From Lachnospiraceae bacterium (GTDB lineage Bacteria > Bacillota > Clostridia > Lachnospirales > Lachnospiraceae): 64,000 nucleotides of DNA. The DNA is taken from the NCBI GenBank assembly GCA_031554725.1, contig JAVBUZ010000058.1:410-64409 (forward strand), read 5' to 3'. The position numbers were made by a program, and so were the translations under genes. The notes under the pieces are model-generated. The model saw only the letters and a program-made list of their open reading frames with translations. It was not told the DNA's origin and did not search any database. Positions 2 to 51,212 of this stretch are shown here, piece by piece. The number at the start of each line of letters is the position of its first letter. Within the stretch, counting starts at the first letter, position 1.

Positions 2-511
2 TCTTGGACAGTAGCAATGGTTGCGGGAACTATGGCTAATGTTATTATCTTGCTAGTTGGTGATTTGTTATATGACATAAATATGTCTGTGTTTGGCCTT
101 TTACTATCATCGCTAGTTTCGATAGCCTTGGTGAAGGTGCTTCAATTTTTTGTATTTAGTGTGGATTATAAACGAACAGAAAAGGTACAGTTTGAAGACG
201 ATGAGTATTACTACTATGTAAAAGCTGTTCCTAAGATGATGGTAGCAACACCTACCAAAACAGTGAAAAAAATCAATTCACAATTACACACACCGCAGGA
301 CAGACGAAACGTTGTTGGAGATAGAGTGACTTCTCAAAGAACAACAAATACGCGACCAGTAACAACAGAAAGAACAGTAACAACGGAACGAACAGGTTCA
401 AATGCAAGAAGTATGAATAATACAAGAGTGCAGTCAGGACGTAGCGTTACAACTGGAAGAAGTATTTATGTGGATGAGGATGTAAATAGAGAAGATTACG
501 AAGAAATATAA
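2..511 (+). CDS. C-terminal part of a membrane protein with an Arg/Thr-rich tail (function unknown; 5' end outside the window)
   Basis: The frame is open from nt 2, with no stop before the listed Met at 17. Hydrophobic helices are followed by the low-complexity tail QRTTNTRPVTTERTVTTERTG. I recognise no family. Confidence 0.4.
   Translation, partial: SWTVAMVAGTMANVIILLVGDLLYDINMSVFGLLLSSLVSIALVKVLQFFVFSVDYKRTEKVQFEDDEYYYYVKAVPKMMVATPTKTVKKINSQLHTPQDRRNVVGDRVTSQRTTNTRPVTTERTVTTERTGSNARSMNNTRVQSGRSVTTGRSIYVDEDVNREDYEEI
359..394 (+). repeat. Two tandem copies of an 18-nt unit, encoding VTTERT twice
   Basis: gtaacaacagaaagaaca / gtaacaacggaacgaaca, 16 of 18 identical, in frame inside the first CDS. 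Confidence 0.8.
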
Positions 512-532
512 AATATTCAGTAGTGCTAAGTT

Positions 533-1444
533 TTGCAGTCTACGAAGAAAGGTATGACTATTTTTATGCAGTATATTTACCTAGTGCTTGATAATCTACA
601 TATGCGTATGCCGAGTATTGACTTGACAGATGTCATTGAGATATTGATTATTGCTTTTATGATATATCACATTTTAACATGGATTAAAAATACAAGAGCC
701 TGGTCTTTACTTAAAGGTCTCTTTGTCATACTAGGATTTATTCTATTAGCATATAACTTTAAAATGAATACCATCTTGTGGATTGCAAGAAATATTTTGA
801 GTTTTGCTGCCATGACGTTTATTGTGGTATTACAGCCTGAATTAAGAAAAGCACTGGAAGAGCTTGGTAACAAAAACCTTATTCATTCAGTGTTGCCCTT
901 TGATTCAACCAAAATAGAAGATGGAAGGTTTTCAGACAAAACGATTCATGAAATAACAAAGGCTTGTGTAGAGATGGGAAGAGTAAAAACAGGTGCTCTT
1001 TTGGTAATTCAGCAAAAACAGCCATTAAATGATTTTGAGAGAACGGGCATAGAAGTCGATGCTATTTTAACGAGTCAATTATTAATTAATATTTTTGAAC
1101 ATAACACACCATTGCATGATGGTGCGGTTATTGTGCGTGGAAATAGAATTATGTCTGCAACATGTTATCTTCCATTATCAGACAACATGAGTTTAGATAA
1201 GGAGCTGGGAACAAGACATCGCGCGGGGCTCGGAATTTCTGAAGTGACGGATTCTATGACAATTATTGTTTCAGAGGAAACCGGAAAAATTAGTGTTGCA
1301 TATAAAGGGAACTTGGAAAGAGGCGTAGATGCAGAACGACTGAAAGAGTGCTTGGCGACCATCCAGAATAAGAGCGATGAAGACGTAAAAAAACAGCGCA
1401 AATGGAGAGGACGGAATAAAAATGAAAAAGAAACTGTTGAATAA
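533..1444 (+). CDS. cdaA: Diadenylate cyclase CdaA (c-di-AMP synthase)
   Basis: Three N-terminal TM helices precede a DAC domain with the signature motifs HDGAVIV and TRHRAG. cdaR and glmM follow in the conserved order. The listed start is a TTG; the ATG at 554 is an alternative. Confidence 0.9.
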   Translation: MQSTKKGMTIFMQYIYLVLDNLHMRMPSIDLTDVIEILIIAFMIYHILTWIKNTRAWSLLKGLFVILGFILLAYNFKMNTILWIARNILSFAAMTFIVVLQPELRKALEELGNKNLIHSVLPFDSTKIEDGRFSDKTIHEITKACVEMGRVKTGALLVIQQKQPLNDFERTGIEVDAILTSQLLINIFEHNTPLHDGAVIVRGNRIMSATCYLPLSDNMSLDKELGTRHRAGLGISEVTDSMTIIVSEETGKISVAYKGNLERGVDAERLKECLATIQNKSDEDVKKQRKWRGRNKNEKETVE

Positions 1445-2699
1445 TTGGTGGATTAAAATAGTATCTCTTTTTTTTGCGTTTATCCTTTGGTTTGTGGTAG
1501 TTAATATAGACGATCCGGTGGAAGACAAGACATTTTCTAATATAAAGGTAACGCTACTCAATACCAACTTGATAACAGATAAGAATAAGGTTTATCAGGT
1601 ACTTGATGGTACTGGCGTTGTTAGAAGTGTAAAGGTAAGTGCATTAAGAAGTATTGTAGAAGAACTTGATGAAGGTGATATTGTTGCAGAGGCGGACTTT
1701 GCGAATGTGACAGTAAACGACACCATAGAAATTGTATTTTATAGTAATCGATATAACAAAGAAATACAAAGTATTACGGGAAATATCGAAATGCTGAAGC
1801 TGAATATTGAGGATAAGAAAAAAGATGTATTCCCGATCAAGGCTGAAACAAATGGAGAGCCAGCAGATGGCTATATTATAGGAAATGTAAATGTGGATCA
1901 AAACCGATTGGAAATTTCGGGACCTGAATCGGCAGTGTCTCTTGTTAAGAGTGCAATCGTAAAGGTAGATGTTACAGATGCAACGAGTGATATCTCGACG
2001 TATGCAGACATAAAATTATTTGATGCTGATGGAAATCAGCTATCTACAGAAACTTTATCAATGAATGCAGAATCGATACGTGTTGGAGTGCAGGTTTTGG
2101 CGACCAAAGAGGTGCCATTAGAATATAGTGTCATGGGGACGCCAGCACAAGGCTTTATGGCAACGGGTGTAATAGAGAGCAATCCAACCACAGTACGTAT
2201 TGCGGGAACAAATAGCACCTTAGCTGGAATTAATAGTATTGTAATACCAGAAGAGGTATTGAATGTTACGGGTCAGAATGCAGATATGATGACAATTGTA
2301 AATATTAAAGAATATCTGCCAGATAATGTAAGCTTGGTAGGTAACTTTAATGGAAAAGCTGCTGTTACTGTTTACATTGAAAAACAAGAGAAGAGAGAGA
2401 TAGAATTGCCGGTTGATCGTATTCGAGTATTGGGCTTGGGTACGGGCTACGAAGCTGAAATAGACACAGCTCAGACGGAGTATATTGTTAATCTTTTGGG
2501 GCTGGCTAGCCAAGTAGGGGCAGTAAATGCCAATGCCCTGTATGGATATATTCAAATGACGGATGTTTTGGAAGAGGCGAATATAGAAGAAGTGAAGGAA
2601 GGTACCTATCATGCAAATGTAGTGTTTAACTTGGGGCAGAACATTACATTAGAAAATGAATTGAGGGTAACCCTAAAGATTAGTAAGACGGAGGAATAA
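1422..2699 (+). CDS. cdaR: CdaA regulatory protein CdaR (YbbR-domain protein)
   Basis: An N-terminal TM anchor (WWIKIVSLFFAFILWFVV) is followed by repeated beta-rich YbbR-like segments. It overlaps the cdaA stop by 23 nt and sits between cdaA and glmM. Confidence 0.8.
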   Translation: MKKKLLNNWWIKIVSLFFAFILWFVVVNIDDPVEDKTFSNIKVTLLNTNLITDKNKVYQVLDGTGVVRSVKVSALRSIVEELDEGDIVAEADFANVTVNDTIEIVFYSNRYNKEIQSITGNIEMLKLNIEDKKKDVFPIKAETNGEPADGYIIGNVNVDQNRLEISGPESAVSLVKSAIVKVDVTDATSDISTYADIKLFDADGNQLSTETLSMNAESIRVGVQVLATKEVPLEYSVMGTPAQGFMATGVIESNPTTVRIAGTNSTLAGINSIVIPEEVLNVTGQNADMMTIVNIKEYLPDNVSLVGNFNGKAAVTVYIEKQEKREIELPVDRIRVLGLGTGYEAEIDTAQTEYIVNLLGLASQVGAVNANALYGYIQMTDVLEEANIEEVKEGTYHANVVFNLGQNITLENELRVTLKISKTEE

Positions 2700-2703
2700 G
2701 ACA

Positions 2704-4053
2704 GTGGGACGTTTATTTGGAACGGATGGAGTAAGAGGAATAGCGAATGAGGAACTGACCCCGCTTTTAGCAATGCAATTAGGTCAGGCAGGTGCGTATG
2801 TTCTTACAAAAGAAAATGAGCACAAGCCAACAATTATGGTTGGTTGTGATACTCGTATATCAGGCGACATGCTTGCCAATGCACTAATGGCAGGTGCTTG
2901 CTCGGTAGGCGCGAACTGCATTTTTGTGGGTGTGATTCCAACACCAGCAGTAGCATACTTAACTAAAAAATATAAAGTGGATGCGGGTGTTGTAATTTCA
3001 GCATCTCACAATCCAGTAGAATTTAATGGAATTAAATTCTTTGATGGAGAAGGCTATAAGCTTCCTGATGAGTTAGAAGATGAGATTGAAGCACTAATAC
3101 GTTCCAATATGAGTGGTGTTGCATTCCCGACAGGAACTGGAATTGGTAAAATTAAGTATAGAACGGATGCAAGAGAAGAATATATCAATCATGCAATTCA
3201 GTCTGTTAATGTAGAACTATCGGGCGTTAAAATTGTGGTAGACTGTGCTGAAGGCGCTTCATTCTACACATCTGTAGAAGCGCTAAAGGAATTGGGCGCT
3301 GAAGTAGTAGCAATACATAATAATCCAGATGGAACAAATATTAATGCTAACTGTGGTTCCACACATATGGAAGAGCTACAAGCCAGAGTAGTATATGAAA
3401 AGGCAAACCTTGGTTTAGCTTTTGATGGGGATGCAGATAGACTTTTAGCGGTAGATGAAAATGGTAAGATGGTTGACGGTGACCAGATTATGGGTATTGT
3501 TGGAAACTACTTAAAGAATAATGGCAAATTAAAAAAGAATATTATTGTAGCGACAATCATGAGTAACCTTGGTTTCTTTTTAATGGCAGAAAAAAATGGT
3601 ATTAAAGCGGAGCAAACAAAAGTTGGTGATCGCTATGTTTTGGAAAGAATGAAAGAAATTGGGGCTAACCTAGGTGGAGAGCAGTCAGGACATGTCATTT
3701 TCCTAGATGAAAATACAACTGGTGATGGACTACTTAGTGCGTTACATTTATTGGAAGTAATGGTGGAAACCAAAAAACCCCTTTCAGAGCTTGCTCAGAT
3801 TATGGAAGTATTACCTCAAGCACTTGTTAATGCGAAGGTAGCAAATCATAAAAAAGAGCATTATATGGAATATCCGGAAGTGGCTTCTGCAATTGAAAAA
3901 ATAACAGAGAAGTTTGCAGGTGAGGGTAGAGTTTTAATAAGACCTTCAGGAACAGAACCTCTAGTTCGTGTTATGATTGAAGGCAAAGATAAGGTACAGA
4001 TACAACAAGAGGCGGACAAATTAGCAAGCTTAATCCAAGATATTATGTTCTAG
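2704..4053 (+). CDS. glmM: Phosphoglucosamine mutase GlmM
   Basis: GTG start. It has the phosphoserine loop ISASHNP, the metal loop FDGDADR, the sugar loop GGEQSGH and an N-terminal FGTDGVRG. Confidence 0.95.
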   Translation: MGRLFGTDGVRGIANEELTPLLAMQLGQAGAYVLTKENEHKPTIMVGCDTRISGDMLANALMAGACSVGANCIFVGVIPTPAVAYLTKKYKVDAGVVISASHNPVEFNGIKFFDGEGYKLPDELEDEIEALIRSNMSGVAFPTGTGIGKIKYRTDAREEYINHAIQSVNVELSGVKIVVDCAEGASFYTSVEALKELGAEVVAIHNNPDGTNINANCGSTHMEELQARVVYEKANLGLAFDGDADRLLAVDENGKMVDGDQIMGIVGNYLKNNGKLKKNIIVATIMSNLGFFLMAEKNGIKAEQTKVGDRYVLERMKEIGANLGGEQSGHVIFLDENTTGDGLLSALHLLEVMVETKKPLSELAQIMEVLPQALVNAKVANHKKEHYMEYPEVASAIEKITEKFAGEGRVLIRPSGTEPLVRVMIEGKDKVQIQQEADKLASLIQDIMF

Positions 4054-4144
4054 GAAACATTGCGATTGAAGTATAGTTGGACTTGAGATATTTGTGGAAA
4101 AATGGTATAGTGATATTAGCGCAAAGGAATTGGAGGTAAGGCAT

Positions 4145-4408
4145 ATGGTAAGCCAGAAGGTTGTTGTAAAAAATCCAACAGGACTACATTTAAGACCAGC
4201 AGGGATTCTTTGTAAGGAAGCTATGAAATATAAATCTCTTATTACATTTATGTTTCGCGATAGCACCGCAAATGCAAAAAGTGTTCTTAGCGTATTAGGT
4301 GCATGTGTAAAGAGCGGCGATGAAATCGAACTTTGCTGTGATGGAGACGATGAAGAAACTGCACTACATAATTTAGTGGAATTAATTGAAAGCGGACTTG
4401 GTGAATAA
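4145..4408 (+). CDS. HPr-family phosphocarrier protein
   Basis: It has the active-site context NPTGLHLRPAG (His15 equivalent) and AKSVLSVLGA (Ser46 equivalent). The ATG at 4145 has GGAGG 7 nt upstream; the listed GTG at 4094 would add 17 unrelated residues. Confidence 0.75.
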   Translation: MVSQKVVVKNPTGLHLRPAGILCKEAMKYKSLITFMFRDSTANAKSVLSVLGACVKSGDEIELCCDGDDEETALHNLVELIESGLGE

Positions 4409-4423
4409 TGATATAAATCTAAC

Positions 4424-4450
4424 AGCCCATCTACGATGGGCTTGTTTTTT
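4424..4450 (+). terminator. Rho-independent terminator after the HPr-like gene
   Basis: AGCCCATC-tacg-GATGGGCT (8-bp stem, 4-nt loop) followed by G and T6. Confidence 0.8.
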
Positions 4451-4474
4451 AGACATAAAAAGAAGGAGAATGTA

Positions 4475-6148
4475 ATGCTTAACTATCAAAGATATCAAAA
4501 GAAGCCAGTGGTGGAATATCCACAGAGAAAGTGGCCAACTAGAGAAATCACAAAGGCACCAGCTTGGTGCAGTGTAGATTTAAGAGATGGAAATCAAGCA
4601 CTAATTGATCCCATGATTGTGGAAGAAAAAGTGGAAATGTTTGAATTTTTGGTGGCTTTAGGATTTAAAGAAATCGAAGTTGGATTTCCAGCTGCAAGTC
4701 AAATTGAATTTGATTTTTTAAGACAGCTAATTGATAGGAGACTTGTGCCAGATGATGTAAAGGTGCAGGTTTTAACTCAGTGTAGAAAAGAGCTTATTGA
4801 AAGAACCTTTGAATCCATAGAAGGCTGTAAACAGGCTGTTGTTCATATCTATAATTCTACATCGACCTTACAACGCGATGTGGTTTTTGGCATGGATAGA
4901 GAACAGATTGTGGATATTGCAGTACAAGGAACTAGAATGGTTAAAGAGCTTGCGGCTAGCTTTCCAGGAGAAATTACCTTGGAATATTCTCCAGAAAGTT
5001 TTACGGGAACAGAGCTTGATTTTGCGCTAGAGATTTGTAATGCCGTGCAGAGAGAATGGGGAGCAACACCTAAAAACCCAATTATATTTAATCTACCATC
5101 GACAGTGGAAATGAATACACCAAACGTATATGCAGACCAGATCGAATACATGATCGAAAATTTTGAAAATAGGGAAAGCATTATTGTTAGTGTACATCCA
5201 CATAATGATAGGGGAACTGGTGTGGCTAGTGCAGAGCTAGCGCTTCTTGCTGGTGCAGATAGGGTAGAAGGGACACTGTTTGGCAATGGCGAAAGAACTG
5301 GAAATGTAGATATTTTAAATATAGCCTATAATATGTTTTCTCAAGGGATTGATCCAGAGCTTCATATTGAAAAAGTAAATGAAATTGTAGAAATATATGA
5401 GAGATGTTGTAAATTGCCAGTTCATCCAAGGCATCCTTATGCTGGAAAGTTAGTGTTTACAGCATTTTCAGGATCACATCAAGATGCTATTAATAAAGGC
5501 GTTCGGGCAATGAAGGAAAGAGACTCCCAGTATTGGCAGGTGCCATATCTCCCAATAGACCCAGCGGATATAGGTAGAGAATATGAGCCAATTGTAAGAA
5601 TTAACTCCCAATCGGGAAAAGGTGGAGTTGCCTTTGTTATGGACAATTACTATGGATTTAAGCTTCCCAAAGGAATGCATAAGGAATTTGCCAATGTGAT
5701 TCAGGATATATCCGAAAAGCAGGGTGAGGTTTCTCCAGAAGAAATCATGGAATGCTTTAAAAAGGAATATCTAGATCAAAAAGAACCAATTCACTTTAAG
5801 AAGTTGCAGGCTGACGATTTGAGTGAAGAAATAAATGGTGAATTTGATACAAGGGTACGAGTGGCTTATACCAAGAGTGGGGAAGAACGAAACTTTGAGG
5901 CAGTTGGTAATGGACCAATTGATGCTGTGAAAAGAGGTCTTTGTGATAACCTAGATTTAGAGATTAAGATTTTAGACTATGAAGAGCACGCTTTACAAAG
6001 TGGTTCTAACTCCCAAGCAGCAGCGTATATCCACCTGCTTGATGCCCAAACGGGAAGAGTGACCTACGGCGTAGGGGTAAGCTCTAATATAACAAGAGCT
6101 TCCGTTAGAGCAATTTTTTCGGCTATAAACAGATTAAAATTAGGTTAA
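4475..6148 (+). CDS. leuA: 2-isopropylmalate synthase, long (LeuA type 2) form
   Basis: It has the motifs WCSVDLRDGNQ and HPHNDRG plus a C-terminal LeuA dimerisation/regulatory region. The ATG at 4475 has AAGGAG 6 nt upstream. The listed start at 4436 lies inside the upstream terminator hairpin. Confidence 0.85.
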   Translation: MLNYQRYQKKPVVEYPQRKWPTREITKAPAWCSVDLRDGNQALIDPMIVEEKVEMFEFLVALGFKEIEVGFPAASQIEFDFLRQLIDRRLVPDDVKVQVLTQCRKELIERTFESIEGCKQAVVHIYNSTSTLQRDVVFGMDREQIVDIAVQGTRMVKELAASFPGEITLEYSPESFTGTELDFALEICNAVQREWGATPKNPIIFNLPSTVEMNTPNVYADQIEYMIENFENRESIIVSVHPHNDRGTGVASAELALLAGADRVEGTLFGNGERTGNVDILNIAYNMFSQGIDPELHIEKVNEIVEIYERCCKLPVHPRHPYAGKLVFTAFSGSHQDAINKGVRAMKERDSQYWQVPYLPIDPADIGREYEPIVRINSQSGKGGVAFVMDNYYGFKLPKGMHKEFANVIQDISEKQGEVSPEEIMECFKKEYLDQKEPIHFKKLQADDLSEEINGEFDTRVRVAYTKSGEERNFEAVGNGPIDAVKRGLCDNLDLEIKILDYEEHALQSGSNSQAAAYIHLLDAQTGRVTYGVGVSSNITRASVRAIFSAINRLKLG

Positions 6149-8013: not shown

Positions 8014-8859
8014 TCACCATTTGTGTCGATATTCAAGAGGCGTCAGGTTTTCATATTTTTTGAACACTTTAATAAAATATGTGGAGGTTTGAAAACCACA
8101 TGAGGTAGCAATTTCTTCAATCGATTCCGTACTAAAACGAAGAAGAGACTTGGCATGGGATAACCTTGAAATTGTTAAATCGGTTAAAATTCCTACGGAA
8201 AAGAGCTTCTGATACTCTCTAGAAAGGTGATACTTACTTATAAAGAAAAGGGAAGAAATGTCATCTAAAGTAAGCTTTTCCATGTAATTTGTTTTTATAT
8301 ATTCACGAATGTCTAAAAACTTTTGGGGAATGGTGTCACTTAAGTCATTCTGAAAGGTGTCCATAAAAATTTGCGTAATTAAATCAGTCAAATGCTTGTG
8401 GCAATATAGGTCAGACATGGCATTTTTTTGAGCTTGCAAATGGTAAAGTGCCTGTAAGGACTCTATGTATGGCAAAGTAGAGCTTGGGGTATATGTGCAA
8501 GTACCTTCCCTTTCACAATAGGTGCGATAAAAAGCAGGTGCCTCGTTGCCATAAAAATGCACCCACATTAGAGACCACATATCCTTTGCACTACTTTCGT
8601 GGGCATAAGGAGTTTGGCAATCTAACCATACACAATCGCCAGCAGAAACCGGATATTCATGTCCATCAAAGGTAAGTGTTCCTGAACCTTCTAGAACAAT
8701 AAAAAAAAGATAGGATTCCAAACGCTCCCTACGACTGGTATGTGGTTCAAGACTTTTTAATGTACCTACTTCCTGTACGTATAAATAGTGAGAACGAGAA
8801 TAGGAGGAGGGAGTTACTAAAATACGATCTGCCAAAGACGTCTTATTCTTATTTTTCAT
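8014..8859 (-). CDS. AraC-family transcriptional regulator with an N-terminal cupin sensor domain
   Basis: The C-terminus is a double HTH (LTLDDISSLFFISKYHLSREYQKLF ... IEEIATSCGFQTSTYFIKVFKKYENLTPLEYR). The N-terminus is a cupin-like beta barrel. Confidence 0.85.
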   Translation of the reverse strand: MKNKNKTSLADRILVTPSSYSRSHYLYVQEVGTLKSLEPHTSRRERLESYLFFIVLEGSGTLTFDGHEYPVSAGDCVWLDCQTPYAHESSAKDMWSLMWVHFYGNEAPAFYRTYCEREGTCTYTPSSTLPYIESLQALYHLQAQKNAMSDLYCHKHLTDLITQIFMDTFQNDLSDTIPQKFLDIREYIKTNYMEKLTLDDISSLFFISKYHLSREYQKLFSVGILTDLTISRLSHAKSLLRFSTESIEEIATSCGFQTSTYFIKVFKKYENLTPLEYRHKW

Positions 8860-8916
8860 GTGAACCTCGTAATTGTGCTACAGCAATAAAATGCTATTTT
8901 TGAGCAATATAATGTA

Positions 8917-8945
8917 TTGATATTGATATTATACAATAGTATACT
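8917..8945 (+). promoter_or_regulatory. Putative sigma-A promoter for gmd-fcl
   Basis: -35 TTGATA (8917-8922), a 17-nt spacer, then -10 TATACT (8940-8945). The TTGATA hexamer is tandemly duplicated at 8917-8928. Confidence 0.4.
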
Positions 8946-9019
8946 TCAAAACGGAACAGCAAAAATTTACATTGTTTATAGAAAATAAGATGAATTTAAA
9001 ATATGGAGGAAAACGAAAT

Positions 9020-10087
9020 ATGAGACAGGTAGCATTAATTACAGGCGTAAAAGGACAAGATGGTTCTTATTTGGCAGAATTTTTATTGGAAAAGGGATAT
9101 GAGGTACATGGACTTATTCGAAGACACAGTCATGAGAACTTGGACAGAATTGAGCATATCATTAATTCTTCCTATAACCATGTTAAGTTCTTTTTGCATT
9201 ATGGAGATTTAACAGATTCAAGTAACTTGATAAGCATTATATCAAAGGTAAAGCCGACAGAGGTTTACAACTTAGGAGCACAGTCACATGTAGGGATTTC
9301 TTTTGATGTACCAGAATATACAGCTGATGCTACAGGAGTAGGAACACTTAAGCTTTTAGAAGCAATTAGAATTAGCGGTGGAAATTGTCGTTTCTACCAA
9401 GCATCTACATCTGAGCTTTTCGGTGGTTTAGCAGAAAATGCTCCACAAAGCGAAAGAACTCCATTTTACCCTAAGAGTCCATATGGGGTGGCAAAATTAT
9501 ATTCTTACTGGATAACTGTAAACTATAGAGAATCTTATCAGATGTTTGCTTGTAACGGAATTTTATTTAACCATGAATCACCACGCCGTGGAGAAAACTT
9601 TGTTACAAGAAAAATTACATTAGCAATAGCAAACATTATGGCGGGCAAGCAAGAAAAATTATCTTTGGGAAATATGGATGCAAAGCGTGACTGGGGATTT
9701 GCAGGTGATTATGTTAAGGGCATGTGGATGATGCTACAGCAAGAAAAGCCTTGTGACTATGTTCTTGCAACCAATGAAACACACACCGTACGTGAGTTTG
9801 TTGTGGCAGCCTTTGCAGAGGTTGGCGTAGAGATAAGGTTTGAAGGAACAGGAGTTTTGGAAAAGGGCTACGATGCAAAAACTGGAAAGCTTTTAGTTGA
9901 TATTAATCCTGAGTTCTATCGTCCAGCAGAAGTGGAATTCCTTTGGGGTGATGCAAGTAAGGCGGAAAAAGAACTTGGATGGAAAAGAGATGTAGATTTC
10001 ACTAAATTGGTAAAAATGATGATGAGCGCAGATTTGGAAGCAGCTCTTGGAATGAACTCTGAAGAATATCGAGAGGCACACAAATAA
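9020..10087 (+). CDS. gmd: GDP-mannose 4,6-dehydratase
   Basis: [31 protein letters not shown], the YxxxK motif in SPYGVAKLY, and NHESPRRG. The ATG at 9020 follows GGAGGA; the listed TTG at 8972 is less likely. Confidence 0.95.
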
Positions 10088-10088
10088 T

Positions 10089-11030
10089 ATGAATAAATCA
10101 GATAAAATATATGTTGCAGGTCACAGAGGCCTAGTAGGTAGTGCAATTGTAGAATCCTTAAACAAAAAAGGCTATGAGAACATTATCGGAAAAGGCCACG
10201 GAGAATTAGATTTAACAAATCAGGCGGCAGTAAAGGATTTTTTTGAAAAAGAAAAACCAGACATTGTTATATTGGCTGCGGCAAAGGTGGGCGGAATTAA
10301 TGCAAATAATACGGCGCCAGCTGAGTTTGCTTATGAAAATCTTCAGATACAATGTAATGTGATTAAAAGTGCTCATGATACTGGCGTAAAGAAATTATTA
10401 TTTTTAGGAAGTACCTGTATATATCCTAAAATGGCAGAGCAACCTATTGTGGAGGACGCGCTGCTTACAGGAGAGCTTGAACCTACAAATGAGGCTTATG
10501 CGATTGCAAAGATTGCAGGTCTAGAGATGTGCAAGTATTTCAAAAGACAGTATGGTGACAATTTTATAAGTTGCATGCCAACGAATCTTTATGGCCCACG
10601 CGATAATTACGATTTAGAAGGCTCTCATGTAATGCCAGCCATGATACGTAAGTTCCATGAAGCCAAGGTGGCAGGTGCGGCAAGTGTAGAATTATGGGGA
10701 ACAGGAACACCACTACGCGAGTTTTTGTATGTAGAAGATATGGCGGATGCATGTGTGTTTTTGCTTGAAAACTATGAAGGTGAGCAGCACGTGAATATAG
10801 GAACTGGAAAAGAAATTTCTATTATGGAATTAGCCAATACAGTAAAGGAAACGGTTGGGTTCCAAGGGGAAATTATATGGAACAAGAATATGCCAGATGG
10901 TACACCAAGAAAGCTGACAAATGTGGATAAATTGCATGCAATGGGATGGAAACATAAGGTAGAGCTTAATGAAGGCGTAAAATTGGCATATAAGTGGTTC
11001 TGCGAGAATGTAGACACGGCTAGAATGTAG
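10089..11030 (+). CDS. fcl: GDP-L-fucose synthase (GDP-4-keto-6-deoxymannose 3,5-epimerase/4-reductase)
   Basis: [15 protein letters not shown], the YxxxK motif in YAIAKIAG, and [10 protein letters not shown]. It starts 1 nt after the gmd stop. Confidence 0.9.
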
Positions 11031-11145: not shown

Positions 11146-12078
11146 ATGATGGCTTTATTGAGTGTCATAGTACCCTGTTATAATGAGCAGGAGACGGTAA
11201 GAGATTTTTACTTGGAATTTATCAAAAATGCTCCTTTCTTTGAAAAAGAGGATATTACATTTGAAATTTTATATGTAAATGATGGATCACGTGACAATAC
11301 AGTAGAAGAGATTAAGAAACTGCATGATGAGGATGCAAGAGTACATCTAATATCCTTTTCTAGGAACTTTGGAAAAGAAGCAGCAATGTACGCTGGCTTG
11401 CAAAAGTGCAAGGGAGACTATGTAGTTATTATGGATGTAGATTTGCAAGATCCCCCAGCTATTTTGCCAGAAATGTTTTCTTATATTAAGAATGGATATG
11501 ATTCTGTAGCAACTAGAAGAGTAAGTCGAAAGGGTGAACCAGTAATTCGCTCACTTTTTGCGCGGATATTCTATCGCTTGATGAAAAAAATTTCAAAAAC
11601 AGAAATTATGGATGGGGCAAGGGACTACCGCTTAATGACAAGACAGGTAGTAGATGCCATTTTATCTATGAATGAATATAATCGATTTACGAAAGGAATA
11701 TTTGGTTGGGTTGGTTTTGAGACCAAATGGATTGAGTTTGAAAATGTAGAGAGAACAAAAGGCGAGACTAAGTGGAACTTTTGGAAGCTTCTACTATACT
11801 CCTTTGAGGGAATCACAGCGTTTTCTACAGCGCCTCTATCTTTTGCAGCTGTGATAGGTGTCTTATTTTGTATGCTAGCCGTATGCCTTGTGTTGTTTAT
11901 TATTATTCGAACCGCAGTTTTTGGCGACCCTGTATCTGGTTGGCCATCACTTGTTTGTATTATTTCCATGATAAGTGGCGTACAATTGTTTTGTATAGGG
12001 ATTGTTGGACAATATTTGGCGAAAACGTATATGGAAGTAAAAAGACGTCCGATTTATTTGATAAAAGAAGAAATCTAG
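11146..12078 (+). CDS. GtrB-like polyprenyl-phosphate glycosyltransferase (GT2), copy 1
   Basis: SVIVPCYNEQ, NDGSRDNT, SRNFGKEAA and MDVDLQDPP, plus two C-terminal TM helices and the terminal KRRPIYLIKE. The architecture matches GtrB/CsbB. Confidence 0.8.
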   Translation: MMALLSVIVPCYNEQETVRDFYLEFIKNAPFFEKEDITFEILYVNDGSRDNTVEEIKKLHDEDARVHLISFSRNFGKEAAMYAGLQKCKGDYVVIMDVDLQDPPAILPEMFSYIKNGYDSVATRRVSRKGEPVIRSLFARIFYRLMKKISKTEIMDGARDYRLMTRQVVDAILSMNEYNRFTKGIFGWVGFETKWIEFENVERTKGETKWNFWKLLLYSFEGITAFSTAPLSFAAVIGVLFCMLAVCLVLFIIIRTAVFGDPVSGWPSLVCIISMISGVQLFCIGIVGQYLAKTYMEVKRRPIYLIKEEI

Positions 12079-12132
12079 GTGAAAATGCGGTAGATTAAGT
12101 AAGATACTTGATGTGATATGCTGATTTACGCG

Positions 12133-12155
12133 ATGAAAATAACTTTTCATTTTTC
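12133..12155 (+). terminator. Weak AT-rich hairpin after GtrB-like copy 1
   Basis: ATGAAAA-taac-TTTTCAT followed by TTTTC. The stem has only one G-C pair. Confidence 0.3.
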
Positions 12156-12159
12156 GACA
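12153..12159. promoter_or_regulatory. Perfect Spo0A-box heptamer (TTCGACA, the reverse complement of TGTCGAA)
   Basis: It is an exact consensus heptamer 68 nt upstream of the GTG start of the Spo0A_C-only gene. A 7-mer is expected several times by chance in 64 kb, so position is the only argument. Confidence 0.25.
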
Positions 12160-12226
12160 ATTGTGCTAAGATAGTGTTGCATTTTGGTAATGGCAATACA
12201 CGGCACATAAGGAAGGGGATTTCATT

Positions 12227-12604
12227 GTGGATATTGCTAAAGTTACTGACATCGAACTAGAGAAGTACATTACTAAAATTATGTTAGACATAGGGGTACC
12301 GGCGCATCTAAAAGGGTACCATTACTTAAGGGATGCAATTCTTCTGTCAGGGAGGGATATGGAGGTAGTGAGCAGCGTTACAAAATTGTTGTATCCTGTC
12401 ATTGCTAGACATTTTAGAACTACCGATCAAAAAGTAGAAAGAGCGATAAGAAATGCGATAGAAGTATCTTGGGTTAGGGGAAACACAGATACTTTTCACG
12501 AACTCTTTGGCTACAGTGTTGAAACGGGGAAAAATAGACCGACAAACAGCGAGTACATTGCGAGAATTGCAGATAAGATTAGGCTTGATATTAGAGCTAT
12601 GTAA
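12227..12604 (+). CDS. Stand-alone Spo0A C-terminal (DNA-binding effector) domain protein, with no receiver domain
   Basis: Full-length similarity to the Spo0A effector domain: GVPAHLKGYHYLRDAI, VTKLLYPVIARHF, VERAIRNAIEVSWVRGN, LFGY, RPTNSEYIARIADKIRL. GTG start preceded by GGAAGGGG. Only 125 aa. Confidence 0.85.
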   Translation: MDIAKVTDIELEKYITKIMLDIGVPAHLKGYHYLRDAILLSGRDMEVVSSVTKLLYPVIARHFRTTDQKVERAIRNAIEVSWVRGNTDTFHELFGYSVETGKNRPTNSEYIARIADKIRLDIRAM

Positions 12605-12674
12605 CGTTAACATAAGATATTTGGGAAATAAGATTATATTAAATCGTATTCCCATTGCCAAGGTGCAGAGCTAG

Positions 12675-12716
12675 TGGTAGGTTCGGAAAATTCCAAACCT
12701 ACCATTTCTTTGTCTT
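12675..12716 (+). terminator. Rho-independent terminator after the Spo0A_C gene
   Basis: TGGTAGGTT ... AACCTACCA, a 9-bp stem, followed by TTTCTTTGTCTT. Confidence 0.75.
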
Positions 12717-12719
12717 AAG

Positions 12720-12748
12720 TTGTGCGAATATCATAAATGTGGTAAAAT
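12720..12748 (+). promoter_or_regulatory. Putative sigma-A promoter with extended -10 for the downstream glycan genes
   Basis: -35 TTGTGC (12720-12725), a 17-nt spacer ending in TGG, then -10 TAAAAT (12743-12748). Confidence 0.5.
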
Positions 12749-12757
12749 GTCCAAGAT

Positions 12758-13717
12758 ATGTTGGAAGAAATAAAAGAATATTTTCAGCCCTTGAAAAGGA
12801 GAATTCTGGAAGTTATTATGAAAAAACAAAACGTGAGCTTAATAGATCAAATAATTATAGGAAGCTTTATTGTTCTAGGAATAGCAGAGGCTTCACACCT
12901 ATTAACCTTTATACTTGGTATGGAATTTCGTATCTGTGCGACAATTATGGGTATGGGGTTGCTACTATTTGCGGTGGTAAATATTTTCTACAGAGCAAAA
13001 ATGAGAAGAAAAGCAAAATCTTTTCATAAGAATAAAAACTATGCAATTGGTAAGTTTCCAGGCTGGTGCATGTTGATTGCAGGCTTAATTCTGTTTCAAG
13101 TTATTTGGAACTATTATATACAAGAACCATATGTAGAAACGGATATTACGGTAGAAACAGTTCAGACAATTCTTTCTACGAATAGTATTTACGAGATAAA
13201 TCCAATGACTGGAAGAGCATTTACAGAAGGAATGCCAATGCGCCTTAAAATACTTGTGCTACCAGTATTTTATGCAACAATAGGTTTATGGAGCAATGCT
13301 TCGGTGCAGACTATCTGTTATGAGTGGATTCCAACTTTGGTCTTATTACTTAGCTATCTTGTATACAGCAGGTGGGCGGTATATTTGTTTCCAGAGGAAA
13401 GAAAAAAACAATGCATCTTTCTATTTTTTATTGTGCTTTTAAATCAGTTTGGAAATTATGCGACGACTACGGAGAGTTTTTTGCTGTTTTCGAGTGGTTT
13501 TTCTGGTGAAGCAATAAGGGTAGCCGTCATTTTACCATACGTGCTTTTGTCATGCTTGGAAAGGAAATGGTTACGTGCCATATTAGGTGCATTTGCAGAG
13601 CTTTGCATTGTTTGGACCTTCTATGGTTTGGGATATTCGATACTTATTATTGCATTAGTCATATTGATTCGTTTTGTGAAAGGAGTATGTGCGAAAAATG
13701 CAAGAACTCATAAATAA
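12758..13717 (+). CDS. Polytopic membrane protein, unknown family (about 8 TM)
   Basis: It is a long hydrophobic ORF. The probable true start is the ATG at 12818 (MKKQNVSL...), because the putative promoter -10 ends at 12748. Confidence 0.6.
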   Translation: MLEEIKEYFQPLKRRILEVIMKKQNVSLIDQIIIGSFIVLGIAEASHLLTFILGMEFRICATIMGMGLLLFAVVNIFYRAKMRRKAKSFHKNKNYAIGKFPGWCMLIAGLILFQVIWNYYIQEPYVETDITVETVQTILSTNSIYEINPMTGRAFTEGMPMRLKILVLPVFYATIGLWSNASVQTICYEWIPTLVLLLSYLVYSRWAVYLFPEERKKQCIFLFFIVLLNQFGNYATTTESFLLFSSGFSGEAIRVAVILPYVLLSCLERKWLRAILGAFAELCIVWTFYGLGYSILIIALVILIRFVKGVCAKNARTHK

Positions 13718-48224: not shown

Positions 48225-51212
48225 ATGCAACGTTTATTTCTACAACAAAGCTATATTGACTGCTATGAAGCGTATGAAAAAAGTTTACAAAAAGAATCTT
48301 TTATTAAGTGGGATTATGTAGTGTTAACAGCTTCTAATGAGGAACAAGCTGAAACATATCGTGAACAAATAAAGTATCGCATTTTAAATAAATGTCTACC
48401 TGAAGATACAAAGTATGTGGTGCTTTCTGATCCAGACGGCAAACGCGTGGGCTCAGGTGGAGCAACTTTGAATGTGCTAAAATATATAGCGACTGAGGAA
48501 AATTTGGAGGCTTGCGTTAACCCATTTTGTGGTCAAAGAATACTTGTAATACATTCAGGTGGTGACAGTAAACGTGTTCCCCAGTATAGTGCTTGTGGAA
48601 AACTGTTTTCTCCAGTACCTAGAGAATTGCCAGATGGCAGAGCCTCGACGCTTTTTGACGAGTTTATTATTGGAATGTCAGGTGTGGCAGGTAGGCTAAA
48701 AGAGGGCATGCTAGTGTTGTCGGGAGATGTACTACTATTATTTAATCCTTTACAAATAGATTTTACGTTTCAAGGTGCGGCAGCGTTGTCAATCAAGGAG
48801 AAGGTAAGCATTGGAAAGAACCATGGTGTGTTTCTAAATGATGGAAACGATCACGTAGCCAGATTCTTGCATAAACAATCGGAAGAAACCTTAAGTCAGA
48901 TGGGTGCAACAAATGCGACTGGTATGGTAGATTTAGACACTGGTGCGGTGGCATTAGACGCTGAACTTTTAAAGGATTTATATTCTCTGATATCCAGCCA
49001 AGGAGAGTTCTCAAAAGAAAAATTTGATATGTTTGTAAATGAAAAGGCTCGTATCAGCTTTTACGGAGATTTTTTATTTCCTCTTGCCAGTGAAGCAACA
49101 AAAGAAGCATATTTTATGGAGGCAGCAGAGGGAGAGGCTTGTGAAGAATTAATGCAGTGCCGAGAAGAGATTTGGAAGGTTCTGAGTGCACATCAAATGA
49201 GGCTAATTAGTTTATCACCAGCAGAATTTATTCACTTTGGAACCACCTTAGAGCTACAGCAGTTAGTGACCAAAGAAGTGGAAGAATATGGCTTCTTGGG
49301 GTGGAAAAAGCGAGTTTTAACCAATGCAGATTCTAACAAATACGCAGTTTATAATAGTATGATTGAAAAAACAACCCTTATTGGTGAGGGTGCATATATA
49401 GAGAATAGCGTTATCGGCAGTGGTGTGCGAGTTGGCTTAGGAAGTATTATTTCAGGAGTAGAGCTGAAGAACAGGGGAGGCCAAGAAGTAATCATTCCTT
49501 CAGAGATAGTTTTACACGGTTTACAGCTAAAGGATGGAAGCTTTGTAGTAAGAGTATATGGAGTCAAAGACAACCCCAAAGATAAATGCAGTGAGTGCTT
49601 GTCGGCATCTATGGTAAACCAGCTAGTAGAGGATGTTTCCTTGTGGGAGGCAAAAATTTATCCAATCTGTGATAGCTGGGAAAAAGCTGTGGAAGCGGCT
49701 CTTGTTACCTATCGAATGATGAAGGGCGGTGCTTCGGTAGAAGAAAAAGAGTGGTGGAAAAAACAGGAGAAGACGAGCTTACAGGCTAGCTTTAACCAAG
49801 CGGATACTGGAGCCTTTTTGGCGTGGGTTCATGAGTTAGAAGAAGAAATCAGAATTAGAAGATTTGCGGAAGAGCTTAGAAACCAAAAACAATGGAGCGA
49901 AGCGGTTCTTAATTTAGGAAAGATGGGCATTACCGATAAGCAAAAGGAAATGCTACTAAGAATTGCTGATGAATCCGATTTTTCCTTGAAAATCAGAATT
50001 TACTATGCGTTGATGCAATATGAAAAAGACAGAGGTCTCGATTTTGATAAGTATGAAAGCCTTTGTTTTGGGACAATAGGTAAAGAGATTGATAATAGCC
50101 TTGTTAATAATATTGGTCTAGTTGAAACTAAGAAAATAGCAAAGGAAGAGGTCAAAGTAGAGCTACCAGTACGTGTTAATTGGGGTGGTGGATGGTCCGA
50201 TACCCCTCCTCACTGTATGGAACAAGGCGGAACTGTTTTGAACGCAGCAATAAAACTGAATGGTATATATCCAGTACAGGTAGTTGCAAAGAAGCTTTCA
50301 GAATACAAGCTTGAAGTGGCAAGCGAAGATGTGGGTGCGTATGGAGAAATCCTTACGGTGGAAGAGCTAAGAGACTGTCATAACCCATATGATTCCTTTG
50401 CTCTGCATAAAGCAGCTTTAATCGCTTGTGGTTTGGTTCCAGAAGAAGGTGGAAAGCTTGAAGAAATCCTGGAGCAGCTTGGAGGTGGAATTTTCCTTTC
50501 CACGCAAGTAATTGGAATACCAAAAGGCTCAGGCTTGGGAACGAGTAGTATTTTAGCAGGCGCATGTGTAAAAGCTATTTTTGAGCTGCTAGGAGAAAAT
50601 ATTGCGCAGGATAAGATTTATGATATTGTTCTGAACATGGAACAAATTATGAGCACTGGTGGCGGTTGGCAGGATCAAGTCGGCGGAATTGTGCCTGGCA
50701 TAAAGTTTATTACCTCAAAGCCAGGAGCTAGACAAATTCTAAAGGTAGAAAATATAGAGGTTCCCAAACAAGCGATGGAGGAGCTACAAGAAAGATTTGC
50801 GCTAATATACACTGGGCAAAGAAGATTGGCACGAAATCTATTAAGAGATGTTGTCGGTAATTACATTGGTGCACGCCCTGAGTCATTAGCGGCTTTGTTT
50901 AGGATGCAGCGCCTTGCAGCACTTATGCGTTTTGAATTGGAAAAAGGAAACATTGATGAGCTGGCGAAACTTTTTAATGAGCACTGGGAACTATCCAAGC
51001 AATTGGATGCTGGATCTACGAATACTTGTATAGAACAGATCTTTATGGTTTGCGAAGATCTTATAGATGGAAGGTTTATTGCAGGAGCTGGCGGTGGCGG
51101 GTTTTTGCAGGTTATTTTGAAAAAAGGTATTTCGAAGCAGCAGTTAAAAAATCGTCTCAAGGAAGTATTTCAAGACAGTGGCGTAGATGCATGGGATTGT
51201 GAAATTTGTTAA
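48225..51212 (+). CDS. fkp: Bifunctional L-fucokinase / fucose-1-phosphate guanylyltransferase
   Basis: 995 aa. The N-terminal nucleotidyltransferase part has WDYVVLTASNEEQA, GSGGATLNVL and HSGGDSKR. The C-terminal GHMP kinase part has NWGGGWSDTPPH and PKGSGLGTSSILAGA. Confidence 0.9.
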   Translation: MQRLFLQQSYIDCYEAYEKSLQKESFIKWDYVVLTASNEEQAETYREQIKYRILNKCLPEDTKYVVLSDPDGKRVGSGGATLNVLKYIATEENLEACVNPFCGQRILVIHSGGDSKRVPQYSACGKLFSPVPRELPDGRASTLFDEFIIGMSGVAGRLKEGMLVLSGDVLLLFNPLQIDFTFQGAAALSIKEKVSIGKNHGVFLNDGNDHVARFLHKQSEETLSQMGATNATGMVDLDTGAVALDAELLKDLYSLISSQGEFSKEKFDMFVNEKARISFYGDFLFPLASEATKEAYFMEAAEGEACEELMQCREEIWKVLSAHQMRLISLSPAEFIHFGTTLELQQLVTKEVEEYGFLGWKKRVLTNADSNKYAVYNSMIEKTTLIGEGAYIENSVIGSGVRVGLGSIISGVELKNRGGQEVIIPSEIVLHGLQLKDGSFVVRVYGVKDNPKDKCSECLSASMVNQLVEDVSLWEAKIYPICDSWEKAVEAALVTYRMMKGGASVEEKEWWKKQEKTSLQASFNQADTGAFLAWVHELEEEIRIRRFAEELRNQKQWSEAVLNLGKMGITDKQKEMLLRIADESDFSLKIRIYYALMQYEKDRGLDFDKYESLCFGTIGKEIDNSLVNNIGLVETKKIAKEEVKVELPVRVNWGGGWSDTPPHCMEQGGTVLNAAIKLNGIYPVQVVAKKLSEYKLEVASEDVGAYGEILTVEELRDCHNPYDSFALHKAALIACGLVPEEGGKLEEILEQLGGGIFLSTQVIGIPKGSGLGTSSILAGACVKAIFELLGENIAQDKIYDIVLNMEQIMSTGGGWQDQVGGIVPGIKFITSKPGARQILKVENIEVPKQAMEELQERFALIYTGQRRLARNLLRDVVGNYIGARPESLAALFRMQRLAALMRFELEKGNIDELAKLFNEHWELSKQLDAGSTNTCIEQIFMVCEDLIDGRFIAGAGGGGFLQVILKKGISKQQLKNRLKEVFQDSGVDAWDCEIC

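Follow-up and report, generated by a model that had tools for sequence, protein, structure and literature searches.

A receiver-less Spo0A effector-domain gene with candidate 0A-box control at the edge of a surface-glycan locus in gut Lachnospiraceae

Spo0A is the defining regulator of endospore formation. It is thought to be active only when phosphorylated, and it autoregulates its own gene. Here we analyse a gene that encodes the Spo0A effector domain without the phospho-receiver, found in a stretch of 64,000 nucleotides (nt) from a Lachnospiraceae bacterium (GenBank assembly GCA_031554725.1, contig JAVBUZ010000058.1, positions 410 to 64,409 of the forward strand), which is called the window in what follows. 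The gene lies at 12227-12604 on the + strand, between a glycosyltransferase gene and an operon for surface glycan. A reading of the letters alone, referred to below as the original prediction, had taken it for a self-contained transcription unit with a perfect 0A box upstream; the present analysis follows up that reading.

The open reading frame (ORF) begins with GTG, the first start codon past an in-frame stop, so an N-terminal extension of the 125-amino-acid (aa) product is impossible. Residues 15-118 match Pfam Spo0A_C (PF08769) over profile positions 1-104 of 104 (E=1.3e-39), and Pfam finds no Response_reg domain in the protein. The model for full-length Spo0A, TIGR02875, is matched only at positions 144-261 of 262, and the 161.1 bits fall below its equivalog cut-off of 200 bits, so that by this test the protein is not Spo0A itself. 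Residues 11-124 align with 1lq1 and 1fc3, the effector-domain chains of Spo0A in the PDB (E ~1e-38). The AlphaFold (AF2) model has six helices and a pLDDT of 92.3, and superposes on 1lq1_C with a root-mean-square deviation of 1.0 A and a TM score of 0.93. The effector domain is thus complete, with the Spo0A fold, and the receiver domain with its phospho-acceptor aspartate is absent. Within the 64-kb window there is neither a receiver (REC) remnant, searched for with one query sequence, nor a second copy of Spo0A_C. The gene context is likewise not that of spo0A, downstream of spoIVB; the neighbours are GT2 and DUF6077 genes, and the spoIVB-spo0A arrangement is present in another of the loci compared (L085). 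PF08769 is the sole domain of an intact and conserved gene, as in other stand-alone Spo0A_C proteins. Domain, structure and orthologues together identify a genuine receiver-less Spo0A effector-domain protein, in agreement with the original prediction.

The recognition helix of this protein bears a fixed, family-specific signature. We compared 119 family members with 51 full-length-sized homologues, using B. subtilis numbering. Every family member (100%) has Q at position 210, K at 211 and N at 218 (S210Q, R211K, H218N), while the homologues have S in 92%, R in 92% and H in 96%. Of the canonical recognition-helix set (S210, R211, E213, R214, R217, H218) the family therefore keeps E213, R214 and R217; it also keeps G227, F236 and the C-terminal PTNSE-IA-IADK motif. 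Further invariant changes, A223S, K246R, F252Y and M/L255R, fall at positions nearly invariant in canonical Spo0A. S210, R211 and H218 reportedly touch DNA in the 1LQ1 structure; the literature searched gave nothing usable on the DNA-contact residues of Spo0A. Given the signature, a specificity identical to that of Spo0A cannot be assumed. The protein had been predicted to be a constitutive 0A-box binder; that is reasonable for an effector domain without a receiver, but S210Q, R211K and H218N leave the specificity uncertain.

A protein search gave 3672 matches; each of the best 120 has Spo0A_C as its only domain, a length of 120-168 aa and an identity of 82-100%. For comparison of loci we scanned a one-genome-per-species collection, which yielded 434 matching stretches, and used the best 80 loci for the counts that follow; counts over 81 loci comprise these 80 orthologues plus L001, a second assembly or copy of the window's own locus. 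The 80 loci are from Lachnospiraceae, mostly metagenome-assembled genomes of Acetatifactor, from rabbit, deer, mouse, chicken and human gut. Identity within this chromosomal family is 80-92%, and a start codon stands at the aligned position in the 81 loci (ATG in 65, GTG in 8, TTG in 8). In a library of representatives at 50% identity there is one close representative (P0127, 78%); the other matches reach at most 66% over the full domain, with full-length Spo0A proteins at 50-60%. This gap argues that the family is an old, separate clade. A pseudogene or truncated spo0A is ruled out by the conserved start codon, the synteny described below, the lack of any REC remnant and the conservation itself. 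One 134-aa family member, P0285 (MBE5868235.1, in the cluster of P0004), bears the NCBI name 'phosphoglycolate phosphatase', an evident misannotation.

Association of the gene with a surface-glycan locus, as originally proposed, is conserved. The gene order in about 70 of the 80 loci is a PgfS/ArnC-like GT2 gene, the Spo0A_C gene, a gene for a polytopic DUF6077 protein, one for an unknown membrane protein, a TuaG-like GT2 gene and Bac_transf, a priming transferase. The first GT2 gene is directly upstream and on the same strand in about 72/80 loci, and conserved DUF3048 and DUF212 genes lie divergently upstream of the GT2-Spo0A_C block. The Spo0A_C gene is the best conserved of the neighbourhood, with a median identity to the window of 83%; the medians are 75% for the upstream GT2, 63% for the second GT2, 60% for Bac_transf and about 32% for DUF6077. 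From species to species, gene content and sequence downstream of it vary strongly. The Spo0A_C gene thus marks the 5' edge, itself conserved, of a surface-polysaccharide locus that is otherwise hypervariable and in the window runs on one strand from 8972 to 60411.

The 148 nt between the end of the upstream GT2 gene and the Spo0A_C start codon hold a putative promoter. An alignment of 200-nt upstream regions gives the consensus GCGATGAAAA-n-CTTTTCATTTTTCGACAGATATGATAAAAT-(25-30 nt)-AATACTCGACATATGAAAGGGGAATTCATTATG. Its best-conserved columns are an extended -10 element, TGcTAAGAT at 12164..12172 (+) in the window, which places the inferred transcription start near 12179; TGnTAnnnT stands at the equivalent position in 71/81 loci. 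The hexamer TTTTCA at 12144..12149 (+), with 4/6 matches and 17 nt from the -10, is read as a putative -35 element, and TTnnCA is conserved at this position of the alignment. A ribosome-binding site, AGGAAGGGGA, can be read at 12210..12219 (+), where the alignment conserves GAAAGGGG.

Two sites that resemble the 0A box flank the inferred transcription start. The core 0A box is TGTCGAA, in which Spo0A contacts G2, C4 and G5 (PMC3485338). Box 1 is an exact copy on the - strand at 12153..12159 (TTCGACA on the + strand), in the promoter spacer at about -26 to -20. It precedes the start codon by 68 nt, as the original prediction had it, with 67 bases in between. Exact TCGACA occurs at the box 1 position in 49/81 loci, 47 of which have exactly 7 nt between the box and the -10 hexamer. 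That is too close for TTCGACA to be merely a -35 hexamer, a role for which TTnnCA has the proper 17-nt spacing. The box 2 position, 12199..12205 on the - strand, is in the 5' untranslated region (5'UTR) just before the ribosome-binding site. The family consensus there is TGTCGAG (CTCGACA), with exact TCGACA in 53/81 loci; the window has a degenerate TGCCGTG that retains G2, C4 and G5. Sorted by box content, 41 of the 81 loci have both boxes, 8 have box 1 only, 12 have box 2 only and 20 have neither.

In the window alone the heptamer would be unremarkable. TTCGACA at 12153-12159 is the only exact copy in 64 kb, both strands counted, where dinucleotide shuffles predict 3.96 +/- 1.96, so the window as a whole has no heptamer enrichment. 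What speaks against a chance match, which we reject, is position and confinement. When conservation in orthologous loci is checked, the exact heptamer is present in 51/82 upstream regions, against about 1.3 expected from the locus-wide density of 0.11 per kb, and elsewhere it is found in 0/74 regions upstream of the GT2 gene and 3/80 downstream of the Spo0A_C gene. The suggestion that the gene may be autoregulated gains from this pattern: a positionally conserved box favours autoregulation or control by Spo0A, and feedback or Spo0A control of the Spo0A_C gene, as read from these promoters, is supported. The relaxed pattern TGNCGAA occurs 16 times on the + strand of the window and 4 times on the - strand, a skew that probably reflects the G-rich, C-poor coding strand.

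Farther upstream, comparison of loci brings out a third element, CGATGAA at 12131..12137 (+), about -48 to -42 from the inferred transcription start. In about 34/71 loci it precedes the TG of the extended -10 by 33 nt (range 32-34). The same spacing is seen in three loci (L084, L089, L090) of two distant stand-alone clades, with 51-58% identity, that have no TCGACA boxes. Sharing across clades suggests a homologous promoter with a further operator; CGATGAA may serve an activator, or it may be a 0A-like site that has degenerated.

Overlapping the putative -35 is an AT-rich inverted repeat, ATGAAAA-n-TTTTCAT, at 12133..12155 (+). The weak hairpin predicted there does exist, with a folding energy (dG) of -4.4 kcal/mol in the window, but it is not a conserved structure or terminator: across 71 loci the region has a median dG of -1.9, against -2.1 for shuffled sequences. 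As terminator or insulator the hairpin is therefore rejected. No strong terminator follows the GT2 gene (11146..12078) either, and with only a non-conserved hairpin at the -35 region read-through from GT2 is possible.

The 3' side is different. An intrinsic terminator found by folding occupies 12673..12717 (+), as a 34-nt hairpin (12673-12706) followed by the T-rich tail UUUCUUUGUCUU. Its dG is -26.1 kcal/mol (z -5.3), and 0/200 shuffles fold as well. A hairpin with a T tail, at dG <= -10, follows the Spo0A_C gene in 75/81 loci although the sequences are unrelated, which makes termination itself a conserved feature. The strong terminator of the original prediction is thereby confirmed, and its picture of an insulated transcription unit holds in part: the gene has its own promoter in 71/81 loci and its own terminator in 75/81, so that it is closed towards the glycan operon, but upstream insulation is lacking.

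Immediately after the terminator, the predicted promoter-like element for the downstream glycan operon can be read from the sequence at 12720..12748 (+), as TTGTGC-17-TAAAAT with TG at 12740-41; in orthologous loci, too, the DUF6077 gene is preceded by an extended -10 of this type. It contains no 0A box, the orthologues have no enrichment of 0A-like k-mers before the DUF6077 gene, and no other conserved motif was found at this promoter. Nor are there 0A boxes before the GT2 gene or the DUF6077 operon, or anywhere else in the 1390 nt of intergenic sequence in the 64-kb window, where box 1 is the sole TCGACA. The idea of a locus-specific regulator that acts on the glycan genes through such boxes finds no cis evidence here, and direct 0A-box control of the glycan operon is not supported. 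Synteny alone suggests a functional link between the Spo0A_C gene and expression of envelope glycan. A further hint comes from one distant stand-alone Spo0A_C clade that likewise adjoins a GT2 gene. The listed DUF6077 start, ATG 12758, is about 3 nt past the inferred transcription start and lacks a ribosome-binding site; a likelier start is ATG 12818, which has AAGGAG ahead of it near 12798, and Pfam matches the listed ORF only from residue 21 onwards.

These features can be put together as follows. As a stand-alone paralogue of the Spo0A effector, the 125-aa protein would be a six-helix module of the helix-turn-helix type for DNA binding and transcription activation. With no phospho-receiver, its DNA binding would not be gated by the phosphorelay, and its activity would be set by the amount of protein made; the missing receiver leads us to expect control by abundance. 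Receiver-deleted Spo0A reportedly activates transcription, and it is constitutively active (Ireton 1993 and Grimsley 1994, as cited in PMC10294663). [quoted passage not shown] The gene would form a monocistronic unit of an extended -10 promoter of sigma-A type, a leader of about 48 nt, the ORF and the terminator at 12673-12717. Its boxes, at about -23 and +23, would sit where a bound protein occludes RNA polymerase or forms a roadblock to elongation, as at abrB. With box 1 between the -35 and the -10 and box 2 in the 5'UTR, repression is predicted and activation is not; the most likely logic would be negative control by a protein that binds 0A boxes. The gene's own product could occupy the boxes, in homeostatic autorepression, as could canonical Spo0A~P when sporulation sets in, or the two together. 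Among the loci compared, L083 and L085 have canonical spo0A genes with exact 0A boxes upstream, and PMC3485338 places 0A boxes upstream of canonical spo0A itself. Domain content, fold, conservation, synteny, and the place and conservation of promoter, boxes and terminator are established by the comparisons above; that the protein binds DNA, what occupies the boxes, the sign of regulation and any effect on glycan genes are inferred from them. With somewhat better than even confidence we favour a receiver-less Spo0A paralogue at the edge of the glycan locus, controlled by its abundance and subject to negative feedback or Spo0A control through 0A boxes.

Several observations weigh against that interpretation. 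In twenty of the 81 loci exact TCGACA is missing from both positions; the closest relatives (L002-L005) have kept box 2 without box 1, and in the window itself box 2 is degenerate. CGATGAA at about -45 could mean activation instead of repression. The absence of 0A boxes near the glycan promoters leaves synteny as the one line of evidence for a glycan link. S210Q, R211K and H218N, at nearly invariant sites, mean that canonical 0A boxes might not be recognised by the protein, in which case the boxes could serve full-length Spo0A alone. The last point leads to a different account, in which the boxes are operators for full-length Spo0A~P only and the small protein, its specificity shifted by Q210, K211 and N218, acts elsewhere, for example on the adjacent glycan operon. 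The invariant substitutions in and next to the recognition helix fit such a division of labour, as do the presence of the same boxes at Spo0A-regulated genes and at spo0A itself, the fixed place of the gene at the head of the glycan locus, and the non-0A element CGATGAA common to distant stand-alone clades that have no TCGACA boxes. Against it stand the retention of E213, R214, R217 and the whole fold, and the lack of an alternative conserved motif at the glycan promoter. We regard this account, in which the small protein would regulate vegetative surface glycan and would itself be repressed or timed by Spo0A, as possible, though unlikely. The fold and the core base-contact residues shared with Spo0A would also suit a phosphorylation-independent competitor or threshold-setter that occupies 0A boxes genome-wide in vegetative cells and modulates entry into sporulation, its adjacency to glycan genes being incidental. 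A published proposal has truncated Spo0A homologues manipulating sporulation without recourse to host signals (PMC10294663), and autoregulatory boxes would fix the dose tightly, as expected of a titrating factor. Strict glycan synteny over about 70 species is hard to square with an incidental location, as is the adjacency of at least one distant stand-alone clade to a GT2 gene, and we hold a competitor of this kind to be rather improbable.

There is also published ground for seeing the gene as cargo of a phage or mobile element, a 'phage-carried truncated spo0A', or as a decaying fragment of a duplicated spo0A. PF08769 has been reported as enriched on mobile elements of Firmicutes (PMC6907783), gut viromes have yielded receiver-less spo0A homologues whose action is proposed not to depend on host signals (Schwartz et al. 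2023, PMC10294663), and our own search of a phage database returned a 79%-identical match. That match, MT838085.1 (UNVERIFIED, 'Bacteriophage sp.'; L082), turns out to bear at 328-5643 the same bacterial block as the window, from GT2 through Spo0A_C and DUF6077 on to Bac_transf, with no phage genes. No family member was found among 2.9 million IMG/VR contigs, and the family's neighbourhoods contain no phage or mobility genes. Decay is contradicted by the 80-92% identity, the conserved start codon, promoter, ribosome-binding site and terminator, and the absence of a REC remnant. Instead of a phage genome, the gene has a chromosomal glycan-locus context in about 80 genomes. A phage or mobile origin is effectively refuted by this context, the absence from IMG/VR and the bacterial nature of MT838085.1, and cargo or a decaying fragment is in our judgement highly improbable. 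Another record among the loci compared, MT835504.1 (L083), holds a full-length 286-aa spo0A, plasmid matches are ordinary full-length spo0A genes on large replicons, and PHROGs has two families containing Spo0A_C. In view of MT838085.1 and MT835504.1, some virome calls of 'phage-carried spo0A' may be bacterial DNA or chromosomal contamination.

The favoured interpretation, a receiver-less Spo0A paralogue under negative 0A-box control, can be set beside known systems. Canonical Spo0A of B. subtilis and C. difficile (1FC3, 1LQ1) has a complete effector domain of the same fold, 55-58% identical, with E213, R214, R217, G227 and F236 in common, and spo0A, like the family gene, has 0A boxes upstream of itself. 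Unlike canonical Spo0A, the family has no receiver or phospho-acceptor, scores below the equivalog cut-off and is invariant for S210Q, R211K and H218N; unlike spo0A, its gene is monocistronic and lies between GT2 and the glycan operon instead of beside spoIVB. In domain content the family equals two kinds of laboratory construct, the isolated Spo0A DNA-binding domain and the receiver-deleted sad67. Such isolated-domain constructs bind 0A boxes without phosphorylation (PMC3485338). The family differs from them in being a natural, ancient and conserved gene with regulatory wiring of its own and altered recognition-helix residues. The truncated spo0A of viromes (Schwartz et al. 2023, PMC10294663) has the same effector-only architecture and carries the same proposal of independence from the phosphorelay, whereas the present family is chromosomal and absent from IMG/VR, and the virome record closest to it is a fragment of this very bacterial glycan locus. 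For the boxes, the parallels are repression of abrB by Spo0A, through 0A boxes downstream of the start, and autoregulation of spo0A, where a regulator gene has boxes of its own; in both, as here, boxes overlap or follow the core promoter. In contrast to abrB, the family boxes are single, about 46-50 bp apart, and form no tandem pair. Stand-alone effector domains of the GerE type follow the same principle of a free-standing DNA-binding module of a response regulator controlled by its abundance; the fold families are unrelated (LuxR/FixJ helix-turn-helix versus Spo0A_C), and this is an analogy only.

The idea of a signal-independent truncated Spo0A is already known, having been published for virome sequences (PMC10294663). 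No description of a chromosomal, glycan-locus-linked Spo0A_C-only family, or of its box architecture, was found in the literature searched. If the gene is functional, part of the 0A-box regulon would be addressable without a phosphorelay signal, and the fixed place at the edge of a polysaccharide locus would tie such regulation to envelope glycans, on which the dealings of abundant gut commensals with host and phage depend. Its existence in hundreds of gut Lachnospiraceae species also affects the reading of 'phage-carried spo0A' in viromes, and the family offers a simple testable system of one small protein and two defined boxes. A wider picture, which we offer as speculative and consider doubtful, is that hundreds of gut Lachnospiraceae species keep a second, receiver-less 'vegetative Spo0A', which reads 0A-type boxes with no phosphorelay input and is dose-clamped by the boxes of its own promoter. 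It would tie expression of the hypervariable surface-glycan locus to the decision to sporulate, because Spo0A~P shuts it off or because the two compete at 0A boxes; part of the virome signal of 'phage-carried truncated spo0A' would then be this chromosomal gene.

Beyond the close family, the neighbourhoods of Spo0A_C-only proteins are less uniform. Distant short homologues have mixed contexts: one is a split canonical spo0A, one is beside GT2 and one is beside DUF8201. The split case is P0144 (129 aa, L085 2775-3582). It comes straight after an ORF of 154 aa and a gene for SpoIVB (Peptidase_S55), and is a canonical spo0A that has been split or frameshifted, not a true stand-alone gene. Because of cases like this one, database counts of short Spo0A_C proteins overestimate the true stand-alone genes. 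Some metagenomic proteins (P0121-P0126, P0177, P0189) have 2-4 tandem Spo0A_C domains. One of 1003 aa combines 3x Spo0A_C with Sigma70_r4 and 3x RNA polymerase alpha-CTD, and in another a Spo0A_C at the C-terminus is fused to surface repeats of the Cna_B, SdrD and MucBP types. Spo0A_C is used far beyond fusion to REC, and some of the multi-domain cases could be artefacts of assembly or gene calling.

The upstream transferase of the window (11146..12078, + strand) is a GT2 polyprenyl-phosphate sugar transferase by Pfam (Glycos_transf_2), with NCBIfam scores of 317 bits for PgfS and 159 bits for ArnC-like, both under the equivalog cut-offs. The window has no Rfam RNA or tRNA. From 8972 to 60411 it presents about 51 kb of unbroken same-strand genes for glycan biosynthesis, with short gaps. 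Between DUF212 and the GT2 gene, at 8014-11030, lie genes for an AraC-type regulator (minus strand), a GDP-mannose 4,6-dehydratase and a GDP-fucose-synthase-like epimerase; this trio is absent from most orthologous loci, where DUF212 directly precedes GT2. A fucokinase/GDP-fucose pyrophosphorylase-like gene is found at 48225-51212, and together with the trio it points to a fucose-containing glycan in the window strain.

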